DNA of 24,000 nt from Pyrinomonadaceae bacterium (GCA_963700165.1 OY969475.1:2489969-2513968), one strand, 5' to 3'; numbered from the stretch's first letter, positions 2,321 to 23,752 are shown. The notes: generated by a model from the sequence alone, not told the origin. Translations and numbers: made by a program.

Positions 2321-2495
2321 GTAGTGGTTCAGTTTGAAATGCTGTTGAATATCCACGATGACGAAAGAATCTCGCGCAAAGACGCAAAGGCGCAAAGAAA
2401 GCCGCAAAGATAAAGCATGGCTCAACCCCTTTGCGTCTTTGCGCCACCAGCGCGAACCTGTTTTTTCTTTGCTCTGTTTGAAACTGATCCACTAC
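2321..2495 (+). mobile_element. MITE-like fold-back element, copy A (GTAGTGG...CCACTAC family)
   Basis: 19-bp terminal inverted repeats: GTAGTGGTTCAGTTTGAAA on the left, and GTAGTGGATCAGTTTCAAA as the reverse complement of the right end. Internal arms of GCGCAAAG / CTTTGCGC repeats. Two more full-length copies lie at 6485-6657 and 15225-15397. It has no coding capacity. Confidence 0.65.
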
Positions 2496-2622
2496 TAAGT
2501 TCCGATATAGTTTGGCTCTCACTCTTCTTTGCTGTTATCTTTGGAAACCGCACGCGAGTCCCGGTTTTTATTGCTTTATCGTTCTCTCACAAAGCTCATA
2601 GGTTCAGACGAGGAACTTACAG

Positions 2623-5034
2623 ATGCCCGTTCCGCCTCCCGAAGTTTTCATCTCATATTCCAGTGTGGATAAGAGCTATAAAAACGCTCTCCTCAAGCAG
2701 CTTACAGTCCTTGAGCAACAGGACGTGATTTCCAACTGGCATGACGGACTGCTCGTGCCGGGACAGCAATGGAACGAAGAGATCGTCGGGCATTTGAAAT
2801 CCTCCCGCGTGATTCTGTTGCTCATCAGCCCTGACTTTCTGATTTCCGGTTACGTCAATAACGTCGAGCTAAAACTCGCTGCCGACAGGCACAAGGCGAA
2901 AGAGCTTTGTGTGATTCCCGTGCTGGTGCGCAACACCAACGGCTGGAAGGGGCACGCATTCGGCAGCCTCAAACTCGGCGACCTGCAAGCCGTGCCTGCT
3001 AACGAGAAATTTATTAAAGATTCGACTAATCGGGACAAAGCTTATGCCGAAGTCGCGCAAGGGATTCAGCGCGCTGTGGAAGAATTGAAAGTTGCCGCCG
3101 CAGAATCTCTACTGCCCGAAAACCTCCCGCCCCCGCCGGAAGTGGATTTCGTATCCCGCGAAGGAAGAGACGGGCGCGACATCATAGAGCGATTAAAAGA
3201 AGACCTCAGCCCGAACAGCCCGCGCCTCCTCGCGCTGGTCGGAGACGGCGGAGTCGGTAAGACCACCCTCGCCGCCGAAGCCGTGCGCGCTCTGGCAAAC
3301 AACTTCGCGGGACGCATCGTGTGGGCCAGCGCGGAGAAGCGCGCGGACTTTACCTTCTCCACGCTGCTCGACGAGATTGCCGCCCAGTTGGGCGAGAGAG
3401 AGCTATCCAAACTTGCCCTTGAGCATAAAGAGACAGCAGTGCGCCTCTTGATTGCTGCTGATGCGACGCTCATCGTGCTGGACAACTTTGAAACCGTCTC
3501 GACCGGCGAGCAACAAACAGCCTGCACAAAGTTTCTCGCCTCCGCGCAATGTCCCGCCCTGATTACGACGCGGCAGCGCGTTGACGGCGCACGTCCCCTC
3601 TATGTTGACGCGATGAAGCCCGCAGAGGCGCAAGAGTTTTTGGAAAAATTAACAGGGCAGATGCAAGACCCGGCAGTTTTCACTGACGAAGTTCGCCAGC
3701 GCATCATCGAGACGGCGGACGCGCGCCCTTACGTGATGCAATGGGTAGCCGCGCAGATTGACACGGAAGCACAGGAGCCGGATGTAATTCTGGAAGAACT
3801 CTCCCACGGCAGAGGCGACGCCGCCGAGCGCGTCTTTGACCGCTCCTACAATCTTCCGCAACTGGGAGACGACGGGCGAGCCGCACTGCTTGCCCTCTCG
3901 CTCTTTGTCCCAAGCGCGACCCGCGAGGCACTGGCCGCAGTCGCCGGATTCGAGAATGATTTAGAGCGAGTCAACGAAGCGGTCACTAGCTTGCGCTCAC
4001 TCCTGTTACTCAAGGGAAAGGAAGGCAACAAGCGTCTAGCCACCGAAGGCTTAACTCGCAGTTTGGCGCAAGCAAGTTTGGCCAAAGACGACCGCGCCGA
4101 TGTGTTCCACCAGCGATTCGTCGCATACTTTCTGAATTACGCCGAGGCGCACGCACAGCCGACGCCTGAAGATTTCGATGCGCTTGAGGGAGAAAAAGAC
4201 AACGTGCTGAGTGCGATGGATGAGGCGTTCGAGCTAAGTAATTGGTTAAGTGTTATTCGGTTAATGGGGGCGATTAACTTTGATGGCGTGAACGGATTTT
4301 TGACAACACGTGGCTACTGGGACGAAGCGGTAAGCAAGGGCAAGCAGGGGTTAGATGCAGCGAAGATTGTCAGTAGTGAATGGCACATTGCTGCGTTCGC
4401 TAATGGACTCGGAGCGATGTTTTCAAATCGTGGAGACTATTCAGCGGCGAAAAAATATTATGAGTTGGCTCTAGAGATTGCTAGACGATTAGATATAAAA
4501 CAAGGATTATCTGCGACTTTACATGAGTTGGGGAGACTTGCCAAAGCTAAAGGAGAATTGGAAGAAGCGCGGAGACTCTATAATGAGAGTTTGGAGATTG
4601 AAAAGATGCTTGGAAATCAGAGCGGCATTGCTGGCTCGCTGCATGAGTTGGGGAGGCTTGCGCAAGCTCAAGGCGAGATAGCCGAGGCACAACGACTCTA
4701 TGATGAGAGCTTGAAGATTAAAAAGGAGCTTGGCAATCAGAGTGGTATCGCTATGACGCTAGGTCAGTTAGGTAATATGGCCTGTAGTCAAGGGTATTTA
4801 GAAGAAGCGCGGAGACTCTATAATGAGAGTTTGGAGATTACAAAGATGCTTGGCGATCAGAGCAGCATCGCTGGCTCGCTGCATAATTTGGGAATGCTGG
4901 CAGAGCTAGAGGACAATAAATCGGAAGCAGTGCGGCTGTATCGTGAGTCGTTAATTATCTTTGAGAGGCTTGGCTCGCCGTATGCGGAGATTGCACGCCA
5001 GAACTTGGCGCGGGTGGAGGGGGAATCTTCCTGA
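2623..5034 (+). CDS. TIR - NB-ARC (STAND P-loop NTPase) - TPR repeat protein; bacterial NLR-like/Avs-like candidate immune protein
   Basis: GAGGAA Shine-Dalgarno 7 nt upstream of the ATG. N-terminus VFISYSSVD...ILLLISPDFLISGYVNNVELKLA matches a TIR_2-type fold with a Glu at the usual catalytic position (codon at 2866-2868). Walker A is LVGDGGVGKTTLA (3241-3267), Walker B is LIVLDNFE (3469-3492), followed by ALITTRQR (RNBS-B-like). The C-terminus has five 40-aa TPR_12-like units, LHELGRLAQAQGE..EA.RLY.ESL.I.K.LGNQSGIA. Confidence 0.85.
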   Translation: MPVPPPEVFISYSSVDKSYKNALLKQLTVLEQQDVISNWHDGLLVPGQQWNEEIVGHLKSSRVILLLISPDFLISGYVNNVELKLAADRHKAKELCVIPVLVRNTNGWKGHAFGSLKLGDLQAVPANEKFIKDSTNRDKAYAEVAQGIQRAVEELKVAAAESLLPENLPPPPEVDFVSREGRDGRDIIERLKEDLSPNSPRLLALVGDGGVGKTTLAAEAVRALANNFAGRIVWASAEKRADFTFSTLLDEIAAQLGERELSKLALEHKETAVRLLIAADATLIVLDNFETVSTGEQQTACTKFLASAQCPALITTRQRVDGARPLYVDAMKPAEAQEFLEKLTGQMQDPAVFTDEVRQRIIETADARPYVMQWVAAQIDTEAQEPDVILEELSHGRGDAAERVFDRSYNLPQLGDDGRAALLALSLFVPSATREALAAVAGFENDLERVNEAVTSLRSLLLLKGKEGNKRLATEGLTRSLAQASLAKDDRADVFHQRFVAYFLNYAEAHAQPTPEDFDALEGEKDNVLSAMDEAFELSNWLSVIRLMGAINFDGVNGFLTTRGYWDEAVSKGKQGLDAAKIVSSEWHIAAFANGLGAMFSNRGDYSAAKKYYELALEIARRLDIKQGLSATLHELGRLAKAKGELEEARRLYNESLEIEKMLGNQSGIAGSLHELGRLAQAQGEIAEAQRLYDESLKIKKELGNQSGIAMTLGQLGNMACSQGYLEEARRLYNESLEITKMLGDQSSIAGSLHNLGMLAELEDNKSEAVRLYRESLIIFERLGSPYAEIARQNLARVEGESS
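4387..4986 (+). repeat. Intragenic tandem repeat: five 120-bp (40-aa) TPR-like units within the TIR-STAND gene
   Basis: 4561-4599 is identical to 4801-4839 (39/39 nt). About 78/85 nt are identical over 4561-4645 vs 4801-4885, at an offset of exactly 240 bp. The region looks more A/T-rich than the rest of the gene. Confidence 0.85.
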
Positions 5035-5070
5035 GATGTGTTGTTTTGCTCAGATATTTTGAGGATTCCG

Positions 5071-5111
5071 GCAGGCAGTTTTATGTTAGCAGCAATGCTG
5101 CCTGCTTTGTT
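5071..5111 (+). terminator. Possible intrinsic terminator after the TIR-STAND gene
   Basis: Stem gcaggcag (5071-5078) / ctgcctgc (5098-5105), with an alternative inner stem gcagc-aat-gctgc, followed by tttgtt. The loop is long, so the call is weak. Confidence 0.3.
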
Positions 5112-5295: not shown

Positions 5296-6501
5296 GTGAT
5301 TGAAGAGTTGAATTTGATGATCGTGGCGGGCGAGGCTTCGGGTGATGCTCATGCGGCGTCGCTGGTGGGGGCGTTGCGCGAGCGTGCGCCGCAGGTTGAG
5401 TTTAAGTTCTTTGGCTCGACGGGGCAAAAGATGCGTGGGGCGGGTGTGGAGTCTGTCGTGCGCGCGGACGAGTTGGCGATTATGGGTATCGTCGAGGTGG
5501 GAAAGGTGTTGCCGAAGTTCTGGCGCGCTTTTCGGGAATTGAAGCGCGCGGCGATTGAGCGTGAGCCGGATGCTGTGATTCTGGTTGACTGGCCTGAGTT
5601 TAATTTGCGGCTCGCACGCGCGCTGCACCGGAGGGGGCTTCGCGTCGTGTATTACATCAGCCCGCAGTTGTGGGCCTGGCGTTCTTACCGCGTGCGCAAC
5701 ATTCGTCGCGACGTAGACCAGTTGCTCTGCATTCTTCCCTTCGAGCCTGCGTGGTACGTTGAGCGCGGTATCACGCACGCGGAGTTTGTGGGCCACCCGC
5801 TCGCGGGCGAAGTTCATGCGCTGGACGACCGCGAGGAATTTTGCGCGCGTCATGATCTAGATTCAAAGAGGCCGATCATCGCGCTGCTGCCCGGCAGCCG
5901 TCATAAAGAGATTGAGCGCATCCTGCCGCCGATGCTCGATGCGGCGGCGATTGTGTCCGCCCAAAAACCTGACATCCAGTTCGTCCTCGCGCTCGCGCCT
6001 AACCGGCCTGTGGAAGAAGCCGAAGCAATCATCTCTGCCAAAAGCAGTGAATCGAGATTGCCGGAAGCTTTGCGCATCGTGCACCACGAGACGCGCGAAG
6101 CTCTCGCAGCGGCGGATGCGGCAGCCGTCGCCAGCGGCACGGCGACGCTCGAAGCCGCGCTCGTAGGGACGCCTTTCGTCATCGTCTACAAAGAATCTGC
6201 TATCAACTGGCACACGCTCGGTCGCCTGATTAACGCAGAACACTTTGGCCTCATCAACCTCATCGCAGGCGAGCGGCTGGTGACAGAGTTGATGCAACAC
6301 GATTTGACGGGAGAGAAGCTGGCGAAGGAATTGCTGTCGCTGCTTGACAGGCAACGTAACGAAGCCTTGCGCATGCGGCTCCGCGAAGCGACCGCCAAAC
6401 TCGGCGCGGGAGGCGCATCACTGCGCGCAGCCGATGCGATTCTCGGCAAGGTTCAAGAGTGGAGACAGGATAAGACAAAGCATGGTAGTGGTGCAGTTTG
6501 A
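5296..6501 (+). CDS. lpxB: Lipid-A-disaccharide synthase
   Basis: Collinear similarity to E. coli LpxB from memory: VAGEASGD, ELAIMGIVEV, VDWPEFNL, YYISPQLWAWR, ILPFE, GHPL, LLPGSR, ASGTATLE. Start is GTG at 5296, with an alternative ATG at 5317. The last five codons and the stop lie inside repeat copy B. Confidence 0.9.
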   Translation: MIEELNLMIVAGEASGDAHAASLVGALRERAPQVEFKFFGSTGQKMRGAGVESVVRADELAIMGIVEVGKVLPKFWRAFRELKRAAIEREPDAVILVDWPEFNLRLARALHRRGLRVVYYISPQLWAWRSYRVRNIRRDVDQLLCILPFEPAWYVERGITHAEFVGHPLAGEVHALDDREEFCARHDLDSKRPIIALLPGSRHKEIERILPPMLDAAAIVSAQKPDIQFVLALAPNRPVEEAEAIISAKSSESRLPEALRIVHHETREALAAADAAAVASGTATLEAALVGTPFVIVYKESAINWHTLGRLINAEHFGLINLIAGERLVTELMQHDLTGEKLAKELLSLLDRQRNEALRMRLREATAKLGAGGASLRAADAILGKVQEWRQDKTKHGSGAV

Positions 6502-6657
6502 AATTCTGATGCCTATCCATCATCACGAAGAAACTCGCGCAAAGGCGCAAAGGCGCAAAGGGATTGAGAGATGCTTAATCGGTCGTGCTTGCTTTGCGTC
6601 TTTGCGCCTTTGCGGGAACCTGTTTTTTCTTTTCCATCTTTGTAACTGACCCACTAC
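6485..6657 (+). mobile_element. MITE-like fold-back element, copy B (same orientation as copy A)
   Basis: Termini GTAGTGGTGCAGTTTGAAA ... CTTTGTAACTGACCCACTAC. Internal GCGCAAAGGCGCAAAGGCGCAAAG / CTTTGCGTCTTTGCGCCTTTGCG arms. Overlaps the 3' end of lpxB and ends 30 nt before the kinase start codon. Confidence 0.65.
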
Positions 6658-6686
6658 CGTTTGAGGTGTAGAATAGAAATCCACAG

Positions 6687-8699
6687 ATGGCGGAACCAGA
6701 GCGCAAACTCGGCCCCTACACACTCGTCAGCAAGATCGGGCGCGGCGCTTTCGGCGTCGTCTGGCTCGCCGAAAAACGCTCCTCCATCGCCACTACCCGC
6801 TTCGCTCTCAAACTCCCACGCGACGAAGACATAGACCTGGACGCCTTCAAACACGAAGCCGCCATCTGGCTACAGGCCAGCGGACACCCGAACGTCGTCC
6901 CCATGATCGAGGCGGACATTTACGATGAGCAGGTTGTCATCGTCAGCGAGTACGTGACGGACGGGTCATTGGCCTCATGGCTCAAAGGGCACGGAGGCCG
7001 CGCGCCTTCGATTGAAGCGGCCACAGAGTTGATGGACGGCGTGCTGGCCGGACTCTCTCACCTGCATGAGCGGCATATCATTCACCGCGACCTCAAGCCT
7101 GACAACATCCTCTTGCAAAGAGAGACGCCGCGCCTCGCCGATTTCGGCATCGCGCGCTTGCTCAAATCCGGCTCGTACAGCACGAACGTCAGCGGGACGC
7201 TGGCTTATATGGCTCCCGAAGCCTTTGACGGAAAGCGTAACGAGCAGACGGACGTGTGGTCTGCGGGCGTCATCTTCTATCAACTGCTGGCGGGACGCTT
7301 GCCTTACGACCAGAGCGATACTGTCTCGTTCGTCGGCGCGATTATGCGACACGACCCGCCGCCATTGCCGGAGACTGTGCCCGAAGTCTTGCGACAGATA
7401 GTGATGAAGGCTTTAGAGCGAGAGGCTGCGAAGCGTTATGCGACGGCGAAGGAGATGCGAAGAGATTTGATTGAGGCCGAGCGGCTGCTGTGGTTGAAAG
7501 CGCGCGAAGGGCGAGAAGCCCTGCCCGTACCGGTCAAAGACCCGCAAGCCACGCTCGTGCTTCCTCCCGCAGAGGATAGGAAAGCGCAGACCAAGCCTGC
7601 AATCGAACTACCACCGACTATTCCAGCGACACCTCAGAGAGAGACAGACCGCACGGCGGAAAAGACTATCCCGCAATCTACTTTTCCGCTTGAGTTGCAG
7701 ACCGCCCAGACGATTGAGCCGACGCACGAAGAAGACAGCGCGCCATCGCCTGTCATTCCGGTGAAAGCACGCTCGCGCAGCCGTCTATGGCTGAGACGCA
7801 TCGGTGGCGTTTTGCTTTTGTGGATTCTCATCGCGGCGGGAATTTATCTGTGGATGACGAGAGACTATGCGAAGCAGACGTTAAGCGGACATACGTGGAT
7901 AGTCAATTGTGTTGTCTTCTCGCCCGACGGCAAGTTGCTGGCGAGCGCGAGTACTCAGGAGATAAACTTTTGGGATGCACAAACAGGTGCGTTGAAGCAG
8001 ACCTTAAAGGTCTCTGGCAGCAGGTATGAGTCAATCGCCTTCTCGCCCGACGGGAAATTGCTGGCAAGCGCAAGTACGGACGGGTTACGCTTGTGGGATG
8101 TGCAGACAGGGGAATTGAAGCAGACCTTAACCGGCGCCGGGTTAATATCGGTCGCCTTCTCGCCGGATGGGAAGACGCTGGCGAGCGGGAATGAGGGCTA
8201 CTTCAGGACGGTGAAACTGTGGGATGTGCAAACAGGCGCGTTGAAGCAGACCTTGAACGGGTCTAATCCAGTCGCCTTCTCGCCCGACGGGAAGTTGCTG
8301 GCGTATGTGGGGGAAGGCATCACGCTATGGGATGTGCAAACAGGCGAGTTGAAGCAGACCTTGAGCGGGGGTGAACCATTCGCCTTCTCACCGGACGGGA
8401 AGATGCTGGCGTGCAGGGCTGGCGAGTTGGTGAAAGTGTGGGAGGTGCAAACCGGTGAGCTGAAGCAGACCTTAACTGATTTGAGGATCGCTTCGGTCGC
8501 CTTCTCGCCGGATGGGAAGACGCTGGCGTGCGGGAGTTGGGACAAGACTGTGAAGCTATGGGACATACAATCCATCGCGTTGAAGCAGACCTTGATCGGG
8601 CATCGGTCTCAGGTGAATTCGGTCGCCTTCTCGCCGGACGGGAAAACACTGGCGAGCGCGGGTGAGGACGAGAAAGTGAGGCTGTGGCACGTCGAATAA
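6687..8699 (+). CDS. Hanks-type Ser/Thr protein kinase - single TM helix - seven-blade WD40 repeat protein
   Basis: Kinase motifs GRGAFGVVWLA, ALK, HRDLKPDNILL (7083-7106), DFG, APE. Pro-rich linker. Hydrophobic helix IGGVLLLWILIAAGIYLWM (~7800-7856), preceded by RSRSRLWLRR. Then seven VAFSPDGK-LAS....LWDVQTGELKQTL units. Confidence 0.9.
   Translation: MAEPERKLGPYTLVSKIGRGAFGVVWLAEKRSSIATTRFALKLPRDEDIDLDAFKHEAAIWLQASGHPNVVPMIEADIYDEQVVIVSEYVTDGSLASWLKGHGGRAPSIEAATELMDGVLAGLSHLHERHIIHRDLKPDNILLQRETPRLADFGIARLLKSGSYSTNVSGTLAYMAPEAFDGKRNEQTDVWSAGVIFYQLLAGRLPYDQSDTVSFVGAIMRHDPPPLPETVPEVLRQIVMKALEREAAKRYATAKEMRRDLIEAERLLWLKAREGREALPVPVKDPQATLVLPPAEDRKAQTKPAIELPPTIPATPQRETDRTAEKTIPQSTFPLELQTAQTIEPTHEEDSAPSPVIPVKARSRSRLWLRRIGGVLLLWILIAAGIYLWMTRDYAKQTLSGHTWIVNCVVFSPDGKLLASASTQEINFWDAQTGALKQTLKVSGSRYESIAFSPDGKLLASASTDGLRLWDVQTGELKQTLTGAGLISVAFSPDGKTLASGNEGYFRTVKLWDVQTGALKQTLNGSNPVAFSPDGKLLAYVGEGITLWDVQTGELKQTLSGGEPFAFSPDGKMLACRAGELVKVWEVQTGELKQTLTDLRIASVAFSPDGKTLACGSWDKTVKLWDIQSIALKQTLIGHRSQVNSVAFSPDGKTLASAGEDEKVRLWHVE
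7881..8696 (+). repeat. Intragenic WD40 repeat array with high internal DNA conservation (seven units of 35-42 codons)
   Basis: gtcgccttctcgcc(c/g)ga(c/t)gggaag..ctggcg recurs seven times, and tgggatgtgca(a/g)acagg.g.gttgaagcagacctt recurs five to six times. Differences and indels fall in the segments between these blocks. Confidence 0.85.
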
Positions 8700-8763
8700 A
8701 CCGTACCCGCTCAAGAGCAGACCAGCCGAAGTGATAAGGATAGCAACAAATCAACTGCTTTTT

Positions 8764-8859
8764 CTTTGCGTGCTTGGCGTCTTAATTCTTTGCGGTCTTT
8801 GCGTTAAAATCACTTAACCGCAAAGACCGCAAGGAAGAACTGCGCAAAGCTCGCAAAGA
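8764..8859. repeat. CTTTGCG-type palindromic element between the convergent kinase and lpxD genes; probable bidirectional terminator
   Basis: Inner stem ctttgcggtctttgcg (8788-8803) / cgcaaagaccgcaagg (8819-8834), 15/16 complementary. Weaker outer arms at 8764-8781 / 8841-8859. Shares the CTTTGCG motif with the MITE-like family but lacks the GTAGTGG termini. Confidence 0.55.
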
Positions 8860-10995: not shown

Positions 10996-13755
10996 TCAAT
11001 TGCCCAAGAATTTTTGTTGCTCCTGCGGTGTCAGTGGCTGCCGCGTCTGGGGACGCTTTCTGGCTAGTTCAAGCAGGTCATCTATAGAATCTGGCAGGTC
11101 AGTGGGATCAGTGGTTCTCCAGACGCGCGCCGATTTATCCGCGCCCCCGGTGACCATAAAATCACCTTTGGGGCTGAAGGCGACGCTGTATATCCAGTTC
11201 TTGTGTCCGCGAAATTCGCTTAGCACTGTCCATACTTTATCCGGCGTTTGCCTCCATATCCGCGCATTGTAATCCCAACATGCTGTCGCGATGTCATCTT
11301 TAACGGGGCTGAATGCTGCGTCATACACGATATGCGGGTGATTCAAGAAGTGTTCCTGCTCCTTACCCGTCTCTAAGTACCAGACGCGCGCCGTCCTGTC
11401 GCCACTCGCGGTGACGACGAGCTTGCTATCTTGACTGACCCCCGCGCCATACACTGAAGCGGTATGCCCGTTCAATCTTAATTCAGGCTTCCATGTGCCG
11501 CCGACCTGCCATACCAATACCACGCTACTCTGTCCCGTTGTAATAATGTGCTTGCCGTCAGGGCTGAAGTTCACATCGAAGACTGCGCCGGTATGTCCTT
11601 TCAGTTCCATGGGACGGGCGTCGCCCGCTGGCGGCGATGATGGCGGCGTTCCCGGCGGTTGCTGTGTGCCTTCTTGTGGCGGAGGCTGCGCGCCTCCTTG
11701 TGGCGGGGGTGCTGTCTTAACTCCCTGCAAGACGGCTTCCTGCTCCCACGTTTCAACCTTCCAGACCTGTGGCGAAGGGTCATCGCTCGTGGTGATTAGA
11801 TAGCTGCTGTCAGGACTGAATGCCGCGCTATAAACCCTCTGGTCTTTTTCCGCCAACTTGCGCAACGGGGTGACTTTTAACAGTGGGAGGGGCTGCCAAT
11901 TGCTGACCTCCCAAACGCGCGCCGTGCTGCCCTCCAAGTTTGCCGCAACCAGATATTTTCCGTCAGGGCTGAACGACACTTTACGCGCGCCTTTTGAATA
12001 TTTGCCGGGATCATCCTGTGGCTGTAGCTCTTTGACGAGAGCGCCTGTTTTCGCATCCCACACCTTGACCGGCTCAGACAGAGCCGCCGTTGCGATCAAT
12101 GTTCCGTCATGATTGAACACAGCGTTTCTCACTTCGCCATTATGCGGTAAGACAAGCTCCGTGTGAGTTTGGAGCAAAGCCGCTTTGAGAGCTTGTCTGG
12201 CTTCATTGGTAGGGCTTTCTTTGACCGCCTCGATAGCCAGGAGCAGGCTCAAGTCAGGATCAGAGGCCACATGCGCGAAGGCATGAGCGGCTATCGCGCG
12301 CGAACGGGATTCCTTGTTGGCGCGGCGAGCCGCTCTCCACTGGTAGATCGCGACGCCCGTTGCTGCGATGGCTATTATCAAGAGCAGCGACAATCCGCTC
12401 ACCTGTTTGCGCAGCCGAAGTGATTCCATCCGTTCGCGCTGGCGCTCGGCCTCTGCCTGTTCCTTCTTGAGCCGTTCCTGCTCTTCGCGCTTGATGCGCT
12501 CCTGCGTTTGCTGCTCCGTATAACGGCGTCGCCAATCGAGGATTGATGCGCCCAACACGTCATGAAAAATCTCGTAGCGCAGATTGTCCGGCTGATCCGG
12601 CGGCGGGGAGACAGAGCGCAGGATACGCACTTCCGGCGAGCCGAGCAGCATCAGGACGCGGCTGGCATCTGCGTCGGGCAGCTCGACATAAGAGGCGAGG
12701 TCTGCGGGCGTGTGCGCGATCTTCATGCCGGAGGGCGTGACCAGATAACGAAACAGGCGCGCGGCGATGTCGCGTTCGCTCTCCGGCAGCTTGTTCATCA
12801 CCGTATCCAGATGCGTCCGCACGATGCTCTGCGCTCCGCCGAGCCGCTGCAAAGTCTCAAGCCGCAGCAGATGTGACCCGGCTGCCATCTCTTCATTCCA
12901 GAGACGCATCAAGACCATTTGTAAGAACGGCGTCTCGATGCGCGAATCTTCGCCGAGATGGTCTGGCAGGCGTGCGCTGCCGCCTTGCCCGTGCCCGGAT
13001 TGTGCGATGGTAACTTTGCCTGTCTTCACCTGTTCGAGCAGGGATTCGACAAGGCTGTCTTCGATAGAGACTTGCGGCTGGCCTTCTTTCAAATTCCGGT
13101 TATAACTGTCGAGCGGTTTGAGCACCGCCTCGCGCCCAGCTTCCATGTCCAGATGTTCCAGCCGCAGCATGTTGCCGAGCAGTCTGGGGATGCGCCCGCG
13201 AAAGCGATCCAGCTTACTCAGGCCGTCATCCCGCAGCGAGAGCAGAAAGTTTGCATCCACTTCCTGACGATTGACGGCTCTGGCAAACTCCGCGTCAAAG
13301 CCTTCGTCCGACTGCGTGGGCGGATGATAAAGACAAAACTCTTCAAACTGATCGAAGAATAAGAAGATGGGGCCGCGCAAGTGCTTGCCGCACCGCAAGA
13401 GGAATTCATCGAGCGGGAGAGCCAGATCAACGTCTACAGCTTTGCCGGTTTTTTCCGTGACGGCGCGCAATATCTCGCGCTTGAGCATCGTCGCAAAGCC
13501 CGCGTCCTGCCATTGCCGGAAGACGACCACTGCGAGCCTCGGCTCGCGTCTCAATTGCGGCACGACGCCCGCCAGCAAGACAGAGCTTTTGCCGACCCCG
13601 CTCGCGCCGTACAGAATCGTCAAAGAGGCCGCGTACAAATTCGAGGCAATGATCTCCTGATCGCGCTCGCGCCCGAAGAAGTAAGCGCGGTCAGCCTCCG
13701 TATACGGTTGCAAACCTTTGTAGGGACAAAAATTTGTGGGCAGCTCGCTAGACAT
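10996..13755 (-). CDS. nSTAND-type P-loop NTPase - coiled coil - hydrophobic helix - WD40 repeat protein (NLR-like)
   Basis: N-terminus CPYKGLQPYTEADRAYFFGRE + LYGASGVGKSSVLLAG (Walker A, 13582-13608) + FLFFDQFEE (Walker B) matches the novel-STAND-NTPase-1 pattern. Charged coiled coil at aa ~410-450. Hydrophobic helix VSGLSLLLIIAIAATGVAIYQW (12340-12402). C-terminal WD40 blades (FSPDGK..., GH...V, WD/VW motifs), with a Pro/Gln-rich insert at 11611-11715. Confidence 0.85.
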   Translation of the reverse strand: MSSELPTNFCPYKGLQPYTEADRAYFFGRERDQEIIASNLYAASLTILYGASGVGKSSVLLAGVVPQLRREPRLAVVVFRQWQDAGFATMLKREILRAVTEKTGKAVDVDLALPLDEFLLRCGKHLRGPIFLFFDQFEEFCLYHPPTQSDEGFDAEFARAVNRQEVDANFLLSLRDDGLSKLDRFRGRIPRLLGNMLRLEHLDMEAGREAVLKPLDSYNRNLKEGQPQVSIEDSLVESLLEQVKTGKVTIAQSGHGQGGSARLPDHLGEDSRIETPFLQMVLMRLWNEEMAAGSHLLRLETLQRLGGAQSIVRTHLDTVMNKLPESERDIAARLFRYLVTPSGMKIAHTPADLASYVELPDADASRVLMLLGSPEVRILRSVSPPPDQPDNLRYEIFHDVLGASILDWRRRYTEQQTQERIKREEQERLKKEQAEAERQRERMESLRLRKQVSGLSLLLIIAIAATGVAIYQWRAARRANKESRSRAIAAHAFAHVASDPDLSLLLAIEAVKESPTNEARQALKAALLQTHTELVLPHNGEVRNAVFNHDGTLIATAALSEPVKVWDAKTGALVKELQPQDDPGKYSKGARKVSFSPDGKYLVAANLEGSTARVWEVSNWQPLPLLKVTPLRKLAEKDQRVYSAAFSPDSSYLITTSDDPSPQVWKVETWEQEAVLQGVKTAPPPQGGAQPPPQEGTQQPPGTPPSSPPAGDARPMELKGHTGAVFDVNFSPDGKHIITTGQSSVVLVWQVGGTWKPELRLNGHTASVYGAGVSQDSKLVVTASGDRTARVWYLETGKEQEHFLNHPHIVYDAAFSPVKDDIATACWDYNARIWRQTPDKVWTVLSEFRGHKNWIYSVAFSPKGDFMVTGGADKSARVWRTTDPTDLPDSIDDLLELARKRPQTRQPLTPQEQQKFLGN

Positions 13756-13895
13756 TCTAGTGTCAGGGAAACGGATATACTAAAATTTCAAAACGCGAAG
13801 GCAGGGCTTTGCGTCTTGAGTTCTTTTTGTCCCTTGAAGGTTTTAATTACTCTCTAACCTAAGTTGCTAGTGATAGATATTTTGCTAGACTTCTT

Positions 13896-14058
13896 AAATT
13901 GCCACTAGCTTCAGCTAGTGGATCGAGGTTTCTCCTAGCCGTCGGCTTTAGCCGAACAATTTAAGCTGAAGCAATAAGGACCAGGATTTATTTGTATTTT
14001 GGCTCAAGCCTGCTTTCTGTTGTGCCATGTCTCCACTAGCTAAAGCTAGTGGCAATTT
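13896..14058. repeat. A/T-rich inverted-repeat element (CCACTAGC family) between the SIR2-like and STAND genes
   Basis: Termini AAATTGCCACTAGCTTCAGCTAGTGG (13896-13921) and CCACTAGCTAAAGCTAGTGGCAATTT (14033-14058) are inverted copies; each is itself a palindrome. The interior has mini-palindromes (GGCTTTAGCC, GCCGTCGGC, GGCTCAAGCC). Confidence 0.7.
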
Positions 14059-14083
14059 ATTAATTCGCAATTTGGGTTATTTT

Positions 14084-15025
14084 CTAAGTGACTTGCTCAC
14101 TCAGCACGCGAACAAACTCGTTGATGTCAACATCGAAAATCTGCACCTTGCGCGCATCCCACAGTTTGGTCTCAAGGTAAGAAGGCTTGAACTGGATAGC
14201 CCATGAGCTTATTTCCTCATCTTCTTCCATGTCCTCCGAATCCCCTCCGGTCGGGAGCGCAGTTCGCAGGTTCTTGAGCACCACTCGCAAATTCCAGTCG
14301 CGCAGCCCGTAACCCAGAAACAGAAAATAGCGCGAGCGGAAATAGCGCATGAACTGCGCGGGCACAGCCGTCTGCCCCGTCATGCGCGAGAGGAAATCCA
14401 CGTAGTCCTCTTCCGTGATGACATAGCTGTCCCACTTCTGCGCCGTGCGATCCACCGTGCCGTGCATCTTGTAGATAACGGAAGTCGTCTTGAGATCAAC
14501 GATGAGCTGGTTAGGCTCCACGACCTGCGGCTCAGCCGCGCCGTGCTTCCACCAGAGGACAGAGGCTTCGACATCCTTCCGGTCGGTCGGGTGAATCACG
14601 AGGTCAAAGGGCAGGCCGAGATTGTTAAAAGCGCGCTCCGTCAAATCGTCATAATTGGTCGTGACGATCAGGAGCGGCGTGTTGCGCGAGGCTTCCGCGA
14701 GATAATTGTGTATCGGGCACGGCTCGAAGTCCTTGTCAAAAACCTCTTTGAGCCGCTCGCGCAGGCGTCGGCGCTTGGTCGTCTCGACAAAGTAAGAGGC
14801 GACTTTGGCGAGGTCTATCGTGTCGCTTTCACTGTCTGCGGGAAAGCTGATTTTCGAGGCGAGAAAGCGCGACAATTCTGCCCCGCTCGGCAGGAAAGGG
14901 CTGTTCATCTCCCACGGTGAGCCGGGCGGCTGGCGCGTCCCGAAATTGACGCCCGCGCCTAAGAAGGGGACGACCTCGCCCCTCTTCAACAGCTCCGCGA
15001 TTTCTCCATACGGTGGATCGTGCAT
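14084..15025 (-). CDS. SIR2-like domain protein (SIR2_2/DHS-like NAD-binding fold); candidate NADase effector
   Basis: VVPFLGAGVN (Rossmann Gly-rich loop), LLIVTTNYDDLTERAF (Asn124, codons 14648-14662), IYKMHGT (His188, codon 14462-14464), VITEEDY, FLFLGYGLRDWN. These match the stand-alone SIR2_2 family pattern. At 313 aa there is no room for a SLOG or other fused domain. Confidence 0.8.
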   Translation of the reverse strand: MHDPPYGEIAELLKRGEVVPFLGAGVNFGTRQPPGSPWEMNSPFLPSGAELSRFLASKISFPADSESDTIDLAKVASYFVETTKRRRLRERLKEVFDKDFEPCPIHNYLAEASRNTPLLIVTTNYDDLTERAFNNLGLPFDLVIHPTDRKDVEASVLWWKHGAAEPQVVEPNQLIVDLKTTSVIYKMHGTVDRTAQKWDSYVITEEDYVDFLSRMTGQTAVPAQFMRYFRSRYFLFLGYGLRDWNLRVVLKNLRTALPTGGDSEDMEEDEEISSWAIQFKPSYLETKLWDARKVQIFDVDINEFVRVLSEQVT

Positions 15026-15224
15026 CAGAACCCTTCAAGCGTTAGTGAGAGTTTCAGGGAAAGAGCGTCCGGTCAAGCGTGGCTCATAAAATTCAGAAAA
15101 GGCATAAGTTAAACGGCAAGAAAAGACTTAACCGTGAAGCCTACAGAGACAGTGAAGCCGGAAAAGATACCAACCAGAGCTTATACGCCTCTCACAAATC
15201 GGTGTCAATAATTATCCCGCTTCG

Positions 15225-15397
15225 GTAGTGGGCCAGTTTCAAACATGGCAAAGAAAAAACAGGTTCCCGCAAAGGCGCAAAGACGCAAAGCAAGCAATCA
15301 AGATAAAGCACCGCTCAACCCCTTTGCGTCTTTGCGCCTTTGCGGGAGGTTCTTTCCTGATGCTGGATGACACTTGAATTTCAAACTGACCCACTAC
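15225..15397 (-). mobile_element. MITE-like fold-back element, copy C (inverted relative to copies A and B)
   Basis: Termini GTAGTGGGCCAGTTTCAAA ... TTTCAAACTGACCCACTAC. The interior ggcaaagaaaaaacaggttcccgcaaaggcgcaaagacgcaaagcaagca is the reverse complement of the copy B segment tgcttgctttgcgtctttgcgcctttgcgggaacctgttttttcttttcc. Confidence 0.65.
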
Positions 15398-15550
15398 CCC
15401 CGCGTCCTGCACGCCCTGACCAAACGCTATCTCCTTCTGACACCTTGCCTTAAACTGCTATAGACACTATCATGTGATGCCGCAAAGCTTTGCGCCTTTG
15501 ATGGGCGCGGGCGATAGCGGAGAGTTAGAGCTTACATCAAGTATTTAGGA

Positions 15551-17585: not shown

Positions 17586-17678
17586 CTTTGCGTCTTGAGT
17601 CTTTCTTTGTTTGCGCCACCAGCGTGCAACGTTGCTGGTTCTCGCTGGTGGCGCAAAGATAAGAGATAAGACGCAAAG
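17586..17678. repeat. CTTTGCG-type palindromic element; probable terminator of the radical SAM gene
   Basis: Arms ctttgcgtctt...gcgccaccagcg (17586-17624) and cgctggtggcgc...aagacgcaaag (17643-17678), with a 12-bp perfect inner stem GCGCCACCAGCG/CGCTGGTGGCGC. Starts 17 nt after the stop codon and is followed by ggttttg. Confidence 0.55.
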
Positions 17679-19921: not shown

Positions 19922-20009
19922 AATTAAAAATTAAAAATGTAAAGTGCAAAATTGAAGACAGCATCTCTCGCCTCTTCAATTTTGCACTTTACATTTTTAA
20001 TTTTTAATT
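19922..20009. repeat. A/T-rich perfect 36-bp inverted repeat (hairpin) between convergent genes
   Basis: The left arm 19922-19957 is the exact reverse complement of the right arm 19974-20009, with a 16-nt loop. It starts 3 nt after the radical SAM stop codon and contains the stop codon of the minus-strand HisKA ORF. Confidence 0.85.
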
Positions 20010-23579: not shown

Positions 23580-23752
23580 GGATGGACAGGATAAAGAACA
23601 AGGATGAAGGCGGAAGGATGAAGGCGGAAGGATGACAGGCATGCTATTGAGCCTTAAGTAGCTCATCTCAAATAGCATCTCCTTCATCCTTCATCCTTCC
23701 GCCTTCATCCTTGCTTTCCTATCCTGCTCATCTTGTCCATCCCTGTTTGACT
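23580..23752. repeat. Imperfect long inverted repeat (GGATGAAGG family) downstream of the GT28 gene
   Basis: The left arm ggatggacagg...aaggatgaaggcggaaggatgaagg mirrors the right arm ccttcatccttccgccttcatcctt...gtccatcc. Arms are ~75 nt with indels. It sits between convergent genes. Confidence 0.75.

Follow-up and report, generated by a model that had tools for sequence, protein, structure and literature searches.

A 24,000-nucleotide (nt) stretch of a Pyrinomonadaceae bacterium genome (GCA_963700165.1, OY969475.1:2489969-2513968), called the window here and always meant at its full length, carries at 2623-5034 a real, intact, and well-conserved single gene for an NLR-like protein of the STAND type, in which a TIR domain, an NB-ARC domain, a helical and winged-helix region, and a TPR array follow one another in one chain. 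The key residues of its ATPase and TIR domains are conserved, and the protein is homologous to Apaf-1 and to the plant TIR-NLRs (TNLs). Its repeat sensor diversifies fast, and relatives swap the effector at the N-terminus. Immune function is the best reading of the gene, on the strength of this domain logic and not of genomic context, and the account that we favor, with reservations, is that of a cytoplasmic NLR-like receptor acting as a ligand-gated switch, whose TIR domain would cleave NAD+ and bring about abortive infection. NLRs of this type are already known, and this one is probably used in anti-phage suicide defense. It is an uncharacterized member of a recognized class, whose architecture and probable function are as expected and overturn nothing.

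Domain architecture and conservation

The open reading frame (ORF) is exactly the one delimited by a first-pass annotation made from the sequence alone (plus strand, ATG start, 803 amino acids), and its product is identical to an 803-residue NLR already recorded in NCBI/ENA. That annotation had also read a single-gene TIR - NB-ARC - TPR architecture from motifs, and the Pfam profile search that it proposed bears this out: TIR_2, NB-ARC, and TPR_12 all score above the curated cut-offs (124.9 bits in 5 stretches for TPR_12, cut-off 30.1; for the other two see Table 1), whereas NACHT stays below its own, at 18.4 vs 26.7 bits. The full-length AlphaFold model (mean predicted local distance difference test, pLDDT, 87.9; predicted template modeling score, pTM, 0.76) agrees with this division, laying out an alpha/beta domain resembling a TIR, then a P-loop domain, a stretch of helices, and six helical hairpins. 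Because a sequence-only PDB search with the NTPase-TPR part returned TPR proteins alone, a comparison of folds was needed, and the matches that Foldseek finds in the PDB agree with the architecture as well. The best of them is the archaeal STAND-TPR protein 6mfv (E 5.7e-15 over 684 aligned columns), followed by the resistosome of the plant TIR-NLR RPP1 (E 8.8e-11, at an identity of only ~15%) and further by Apaf-1 (E 2.1e-10), MalT, CED-4, ZAR1, and NRC proteins. The family profile is collinear with Roq1 over TIR and NB-ARC together (positions 5-342 against Roq1 8-356, E 4e-11). With an NB-ARC match that beats NACHT, conserved Walker and sensor-1 motifs, and an Apaf-1-like fold, the protein is a member of the STAND AP-ATPase/NB-ARC clade, and it is likewise a member of the TIR_2 family.

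The GGVGKTT, LDNFE, and TTR motifs to which the first-pass annotation had pointed are all present in the NB-ARC domain. In an alignment of 43 full-length homologs, on which the residue conservation given here for the TIR and NB-ARC domains is based, their key residues are invariant apart from position 316, which is T or S. Conservation within the family is highest in residues 331-520, at a mean identity of 67%, and the modeled helices that follow the nucleotide-binding domain, together with the beta hairpins at 464-473, are read as a helical plus winged-helix region.

The TIR domain is matched at residues 6-160 (to nt 3102) by the PADLOC ThsB1 model PDLC00420, with an E of 3.1e-34, and its profile matches in the PDB are Cat1, TLRs, BtTir, AbTir, and Roq1. 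When the domain is modeled alone, the top Foldseek matches are all TIR domains (RPS4, MAL, TLR1/10, Roq1, RUN1, SARM1, BtpA); this TIR-only model is of moderate quality (pLDDT 64.8, with the loop 106-134 below 50) and serves to recognize the fold, being unsuited to judging active-site geometry. Residues F9, S11, G47, S69, and S75 are invariant. The segment GLLVPGQQW, which includes the invariant G47 and a W50 kept in 40 of the 43 homologs, is by its position in the TIR fold the putative BB-loop. The first-pass annotation had claimed a TIR_2-like N-terminus with a Glu at the catalytic position, and in the sequence alignments this position of helix C is filled by E82, a candidate catalytic residue found in 42 of the 43. 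In profile alignments, E82 falls on the second Glu of the Roq1 'LEEL' motif (E86 in chain numbering), which we take to be the catalytic residue of Roq1, and on the corresponding Glu of Cat1 and BtTir. Within residues 75-82, SGYVNNVE (2845-2868), HMMER puts a one-residue gap in Roq1, Cat1, and BtTir. A solved bacterial TIR-(STAND)-TPR protein may be represented by PDB entries 9m0n and 9umd, an 824-residue 'Tetratricopeptide repeat protein' with 10 chains in the 2 entries, residues 2-102 of which match the family TIR profile weakly (E 0.044); the family TIR+NB-ARC profile gave no match to it, and we found no paper describing it.

For the C-terminus, five TPR_12-like units had been proposed; Pfam does report five TPR_12 stretches, but the model has six helical hairpins. 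Four near-perfect 40-residue units begin at residues 609, 649, 689, and 729, and at the DNA level they appear as direct repeats of 120 nt whose copies in the gene are 75-79% identical. Among 485 units taken from 119 family members, counting strict units, the scaffold positions of the 40-residue unit are nearly fixed and positions 6, 12, 19, 23, 30, and 34 (and 38-39) are highly variable, with 1 to 10 strict units per protein. Across the four syntenic orthologs described below, residues 521-803 are 46-64% identical vs 68-84% for the TIR, nucleotide-binding, and ARC parts, and the NLR as a whole is 63-71% identical vs 71-93% for its core neighbors. The TPR end thus diverges fastest, the pattern expected of a receptor with a diversifying ligand-binding end. 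G+C content also drops in the TPR-coding part (4318-5034), to 0.48 vs 0.57 in the rest of the gene and 0.55 in the window, and GC skew there is strongly positive; a biased amino-acid content of the repeated unit seems a more likely cause of the low G+C than foreign origin.

Table 1. The NLR gene, its domains and motifs, and its immediate flanks, with positions counted from the first letter of the window.
Feature	Position	Strand	Remarks
Miniature inverted-repeat transposable element (MITE)-like repeat copy	2321..2496	.	terminal inverted repeats GTAGTGG...CCACTAC, internal GCAAAG-rich hairpin; adjoins the NLR gene but lies outside it
Conserved leader, probable promoter region	2497..2622	+	alignable and mostly conserved across the four syntenic genomes
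TIR - NB-ARC - helical/winged-helix - TPR (STAND/NLR-like) gene	2623..5034	+	complete ORF, ATG start, 803 amino acids; AlphaFold model
TIR domain, residues 8-121	2644..2985	+	Pfam TIR_2, 48.6 bits, cut-off 28
Predicted BB-loop region GLLVPGQQW, residues 42-50	2746..2772	+	between strand B and helix B in predicted secondary structure
Codon of E82, candidate catalytic Glu	2866..2868	+	SGYVNNVE82L; E in 42/43 homologs
NB-ARC nucleotide-binding domain, residues 187-382	3181..3768	+	Pfam, 51.6 bits, cut-off 23.5
Walker A / P-loop LVGDGGVGKTT, residues 205-215 (GDGGVGKTT 207-215)	3235..3267	+	G207, G209, G210, G212, K213, T214 invariant, 43/43
Walker B LIVLDNFE, residues 283-290	3469..3492	+	D287, E290 invariant, 43/43
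Sensor-1 / RNBS-B-like ALITTR, residues 312-317	3556..3573	+	T315, R317 invariant; position 316 T or S
ARC-like helical and winged-helix region plus pre-TPR helices, residues 383-565	3769..4317	+	modeled as helices with a pair of short beta hairpins (464-473)
TPR sensor with its six helical hairpins, residues 566-800	4318..5022	+	AlphaFold model; TPR_12; direct repeats
Terminator-like stem-loop GGCAGGCAG...CTGCCTGC, then TTTGTT	about 5070..5110	+	-18.5 kcal/mol; weak evidence

Chromosomal address and family

The closest homologs (63-71% identity) lie in three species-level Pyrinomonadaceae genomes, CAWFML010000005 (locus L003, the same as L001), OY970389 (L004), and OY969701 (L005), where they occupy one slot in the order lptD (-), NLR (+), lpxB (+), lpxD (-), lpxA (-), and radical SAM gene. 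Some 125 nt ahead of the ATG are conserved in all four genomes, and this leader includes the Shine-Dalgarno sequence of its own with which the gene had been credited (GAGGA at 2610-2614, 8 nt ahead of the ATG). A simple scan of the upstream sequence found no sigma-70 consensus, which is uninformative for Acidobacteriota. As for the terminator-like hairpin of the first-pass annotation, a stem-loop does follow the stop codon, at about 5070-5105, but it is not conserved in L003, L004, or L005, and terminator-like matches in the region do not exceed those in shuffled sequence (5 vs 3.9 +/- 2.0).

The gene had further been placed between a MITE-like element and lpxB and taken for an autonomous insertion. 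Both neighbors are real, the element directly upstream (Table 1) and lpxB downstream at 5296-6501, but the insertion part of the claim falls. A conserved housekeeping context of orthologs had been named beforehand as the finding that would tell against it, and just such a context is found, with orthologs at the same lptD / lpxB-lpxD-lpxA position in three other genomes behind the same 125-nt leader. The MITE-like element is at the same relative spot in L003, survives as a remnant in L005, and is missing from L004. Since it falls beyond the conserved leader and is absent or degraded at the site in relatives, it is no sign of a recent arrival of the NLR, and we reject a recent MITE-mediated insertion, given also that L003 has the same junction of element and gene. 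Because slot and leader are shared and the fused module turned up on no sequenced plasmid or phage, in collections poor in Acidobacteriota, the NLR is, on comparative sequence evidence, an old and vertically inherited chromosomal resident, common to at least four Pyrinomonadaceae species at the junction of lptD and lpxB.

The element itself belongs to a dispersed family of ~175 nt, with further full copies at 6485-6658 and 15223-15398 (inverted) and a partial one at 17601-17659. The three full copies in 24 kb are mutually 73-85% identical, and each sits at a gene junction, two of them adjoining genes missing from the relatives; in related genomes, the loci L003, L004, L027, L062, L064, and L068 likewise have copies or remnants.

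An operon of the NLR with lpxB, suggested by the common plus strand and by short gaps in the relatives, is unlikely. The sequence next to lpxB is conserved among the relatives, the spacer between the two genes is variable, and in L003 an insertion sequence (IS)-like element lies between them, a pattern consistent with separate transcription units, though not proof of them. In L003, the closest relative, this spacer (12515-14016) contains ~GCCGAGAAGCTCGG-type hairpin repeats in an array, together with the IS-like element, which has a reverse-strand ORF of 261 amino acids without a Pfam match and is flanked by inverted repeats and a duplicated CTGCAATCTAATA.

Beyond the shared slot, at least 797 proteins match the NLR at E < 1e-10 among 8000 candidates scored, and nearly all homologs whose source is named belong to Pyrinomonadaceae/Blastocatellia. 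Scanning species-representative genomes gave 154 related stretches, and the 80 that were kept come almost entirely from metagenome-assembled genomes of the same groups. Searched by itself, the TIR+NB-ARC part has matches at E <= 1e-30 in 225 clusters (50% identity). Several genomes carry more than one family locus and hence multiple paralogs. Tandem or closely spaced pairs (L008 174-4352, L018 9980-16613, L081 6836-11184, with L024 and L028 sharing one contig) suggest local duplication. In some relatives the same NB-ARC-TPR chassis bears another N-terminus, namely a GT4-conflict glycosyltransferase, PNP_UDP_1, AAA_35, or a ParA-like domain plus TIR, and N-terminal effector swapping of this kind is typical of conflict-related STAND proteins. 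The gene of the window is one member of a large, uncharacterized, multi-copy acidobacterial family. We found no literature specific to acidobacterial NLRs, and the text of a 2020 survey (10.1101/2020.01.06.895854) never uses the word 'Acidobacteria'; that survey cites earlier ones in which bacterial proteins of NB-ARC/TPR NLR-like architecture had been noted. TIR is also among the N-terminal effectors of bacterial NACHT STAND proteins (10.1101/2022.07.19.500537).

Homologs at <=61% identity all lack lpx neighbors. Recurrent neighbors of the non-syntenic members are a Pyr_redox_2 oxidoreductase, fumarase, an E1 dehydrogenase, DinB, and a small HTH_3 gene. This last gene, of XRE type, lies within three genes of the family member in 15 loci (L010, L012, L015, L021, L026, L027, and others; e.g., L026 13247-13609), and two neighbor families without a Pfam match recur in 19 and 15 loci; such recurrence may stem either from shared synteny or from a functional partnership.

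A predicted switch and its rivals

If the protein is a ligand-gated TIR-NADase, as we hold to be the likeliest of the readings without regarding it as secure, then at rest an ADP-bound NB-ARC would be kept closed by the TPR solenoid and the winged-helix region. A ligand that is itself a protein, and most plausibly one from a phage, would bind the concave TPR surface and free the NB-ARC from autoinhibition, permitting ADP/ATP exchange and oligomerization. Oligomerization would in turn bring the TIR domains into pairs through their BB-loops and create active NAD+-cleaving sites around E82, and with NAD+ consumed, or a TIR-made signal released, the infected cell would stop growing or die. The ligand, the oligomerization, the NADase activity, and the immune outcome we infer by analogy.

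A number of observations weigh against this account. The spacing from Y77 to E82 is one residue longer than in the canonical TIR W-x3-E, and, the TIR-only model reaching a pLDDT of only 64.8, the placement of E82 depends on sequence alignment. ThsB-like TIRs are known for making signaling nucleotides rather than for depleting NAD+, so the output of the NLR could be a signal. The gene and most of its homologs are flanked by housekeeping genes, not by defense islands or mobile elements, and the fused module was found on no sequenced plasmid or phage, in collections that are both poor in Acidobacteriota. No Avs, bNACHT, or other STAND defense model of PADLOC v2.0.0, a 2023 release that predates the Avs7-20 families of PMC12803255, matches the protein at E <= 1; the matches at this threshold are ThsB, a generic TPR model, and a few weak unrelated models. 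Finally, STAND defense clades lie interspersed with non-defense clades (PMC12803255).

A TIR that generates a signal is the alternative that survives best, and we judge it unlikely. Here a messenger of the cyclic ADP-ribose (ADPR) type or an ADPR conjugate, as made by ThsB and plant TNLs, would activate an effector encoded elsewhere, with no killing by NAD+ depletion. This would fit the best match of the TIR in the defense library, which is ThsB (3.1e-34), as well as the profile homology to the TIR+NB-ARC of plant TNLs, and a ThsA-like SIR2 protein is in fact encoded ~9 kb away (14084-15025). That protein, however, has SIR2_2 only, with no ligand sensor of SLOG/Macro type, is paired with an nSTAND1-WD40 gene of its own, and is missing from the syntenic relatives, in which lpxA directly neighbors the radical-SAM gene; nor is there a conserved partner gene beside the NLR in any of the four syntenic genomes.

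The conserved address invites a different explanation, that of a non-immune housekeeping or regulatory STAND switch following the logic of MalT, AfsR, or NPHP3, whose input would be an endogenous metabolite or protein, perhaps one connected with assembly of the outer membrane or lipid A, and which would adjust physiology through NAD+ turnover or protein-protein scaffolding. Position and leader are conserved beside lptD and lpxB-lpxD-lpxA in four species, other family members likewise sit among metabolic genes, and mobile elements are not associated with them. The TPR region resembles AfsR, MalT is among the fold matches, and the intermingling of STAND defense and non-defense clades (PMC12803255) would suit this explanation too. 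We nonetheless find it quite unlikely. The only output domain is a TIR with a conserved candidate catalytic Glu, no DNA-binding or regulatory output domain being present, and in relatives the N-terminus is exchanged for conflict-type effectors. Divergence of the sensor far outpaces that of the core neighbors, and its number of strict units ranges from 4 to 10 even among orthologs, which would be unexpected if the ligand were endogenous and fixed. The link with lpxB is also loose: distant homologs are not beside lpx genes, the spacer is variable, and an IS-like insertion in L003 has cost neither gene.

Least probable by far is a receptor for self/non-self (kin) recognition or programmed cell death between bacterial cells, a role suggested for NB-ARC/TPR proteins of fungi and 'multicellular bacteria', for which the hypervariable TPR units would be an allorecognition surface: near-identical units with few hypervariable positions and a variable copy number are a hallmark of fungal NLR repeats (10.1101/2020.01.06.895854; PMC4986451) and there are multiple paralogs per genome, but the N-terminus is a complete TIR domain with no amyloid-signaling motif or Bell-type partner gene, nothing exported or contact-dependent is suggested at the loci, and Pyrinomonadaceae are not known to be multicellular.

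A broader proposal is a long shot by our own reckoning. Pyrinomonadaceae may keep a vertically inherited TIR-NB-ARC-TPR repertoire embedded in the core genome, each receptor at a fixed address such as the lptD-lpxB junction and diversifying by reshuffling near-identical units of 40 amino acids with a few hypervariable contact positions. If so, this repertoire would be a bacterial counterpart of the germline NLR repertoires of plants and fungi, unlike the mobile, island-borne defense genes that bacteria typically have. In a bolder version, the copy linked to lptD and lpxB may 'guard' the lipid A/lipopolysaccharide assembly machinery against phage interference. In any case, bacterial TIR-NB-ARC proteins with repeat sensors are relatives of the plant TNL immune receptors, and this family supplies a compact (803 amino acids), confidently modeled example whose TIR+NB-ARC part is detectably homologous to Roq1. 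Were its ligand and product defined, it would give an acidobacterial data point on how STAND sensing is coupled to a TIR NADase, and would bear on stable, vertically inherited receptors as opposed to mobile defense cargo and on how consensus-like TPR arrays diversify their specificity. Three points are worth keeping: the fixed place of the gene amid the lipid A genes, an acidobacterial family of many copies whose TPR units are consensus-like and hypervariable, and a clean link to plant TNLs at the profile level.

The rest of the window and known systems

Compared with the three relatives, the window has lineage-specific additions. Upstream of the NLR, where the relatives have lptD on the opposite strand, lies a plus-strand gene (19-2235) for a repeat protein of the SBBP beta-propeller / FG-GAP kind, which contains tandem units of 135 nt and is followed by a perfect 13-bp hairpin terminator at ~2267-2295. 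Between lpxB and lpxD, which are adjacent to each other in the relatives, a plus-strand gene (6687-8699) encodes a Ser/Thr kinase fused to WD40 (670 amino acids), with strong PADLOC matches to the mad6 and PD-T4-6 kinase models; its WD40 units are near-identical DNA repeats (families D4-D7 and D11), and a GCAAAG-rich hairpin with 46-nt arms follows at 8763-8859. Between lpxA and the radical-SAM gene, directly adjacent in the three relatives, lie two minus-strand genes, one for an nSTAND1-WD40 protein (10996-13755, 919 amino acids) and, upstream of it, one for the SIR2_2 protein (14084-15025, 313 amino acids), which has PADLOC matches of the ThsA-type SIR2 (2e-19). An intergenic palindrome with 35-nt arms (13888-14066) separates the two, and a MITE copy lies next to the pair, which has the look of a candidate defense module of two genes, SIR2 + STAND, specific to this lineage. 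A perfect 37-nt AT-rich inverted repeat is found at 19922-20009, and GGATGAAGGCGGAAGGA-type inverted repeats at 23593-23713.

We do not claim the NLR as a member of Avs1-5, bNACHT, Thoeris, or the plant TNLs, and its likeness to each is partial. With Thoeris ThsB it shares the TIR domain alone, which matches the ThsB1 model strongly; ThsB is a stand-alone TIR with an adjacent ThsA, whereas the TIR of the NLR is joined in one chain with a STAND-TPR sensor of its own, and the four syntenic loci have no ThsA neighbor (SIR2 or TM/Macro with a SLOG sensor). A Thoeris-like pairing with the SIR2 gene of the window was rejected, this gene being 9 kb away, of SIR2_2 without SLOG, and lineage-specific.

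Closer in layout are the single-gene TIR-NLR of P4 satellites that defends E. coli against phage (PMC9122126), the E. coli 'TIR-II' systems of TIR+TPR(+ATPase), whose anti-phage defense needs the TIR active site (PMC11350192), and those Avs proteins whose effector is a TIR; in Avs proteins, direct binding of phage proteins by the TPR-like sensors drives oligomerization/tetramerization (PMC12803255). These systems supply the functional model followed here. Compared by architecture only, all of these join a TIR with an NTPase and/or a helical-repeat sensor in one polypeptide. They differ in being found in phage or satellite hotspots or in defense islands, whereas the NLR lies among core genes. 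The Avs affiliation implied in the first-pass annotation is not upheld: the PADLOC search at E <= 1 returned no Avs or NLR model, and in place of an Avs-like location in defense islands or mobile elements, the loci are between lptD and lpxB or among housekeeping genes. Assignment to bNACHT fails on the NACHT score, below its cut-off where NB-ARC does clearly better.

The NB-ARC/TPR proteins of fungi and 'multicellular bacteria' (10.1101/2020.01.06.895854; PMC4986451) likewise combine NB-ARC with TPR, in multiple copies and with near-identical units that have hypervariable positions; unlike them, the NLR belongs to an acidobacterial host, and its effector is a TIR, not an amyloid or HeLo/Bell-type module. 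With 6mfv and the MalT/AfsR STAND-TPR regulators it has in common the order of NTPase, helical/winged-helix region, and TPR, and the TPR and NB-ARC regions of AfsR match the family profile. The matches to MalT, AfsR, and 6mfv leave the TIR uncovered, those of AfsR to the profile beginning at position 159, and MalT and AfsR are transcriptional regulators by name, whereas the NLR protein lacks a DNA-binding domain and carries a TIR as its effector.

Finally, the plant TNLs Roq1 and RPP1 differ at both ends of the chain and downstream of it. A plant-type LRR (+C-JID) sensor is not what the C-terminus holds, which is TPR_12, modeled as an all-helical solenoid; the TIR is of the bacterial TIR_2/ThsB type; and no EDS1-type downstream pathway applies to the NLR protein. 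On the other hand, TIR and NB-ARC follow one another collinearly in both, E82 falls on the Glu of the Roq1 LEEL motif, and RPP1 is the second-best fold match of the whole protein. By analogy with these receptors, in which ligand-induced oligomerization activates a TIR NADase, the acidobacterial protein is likely to follow the same logic.

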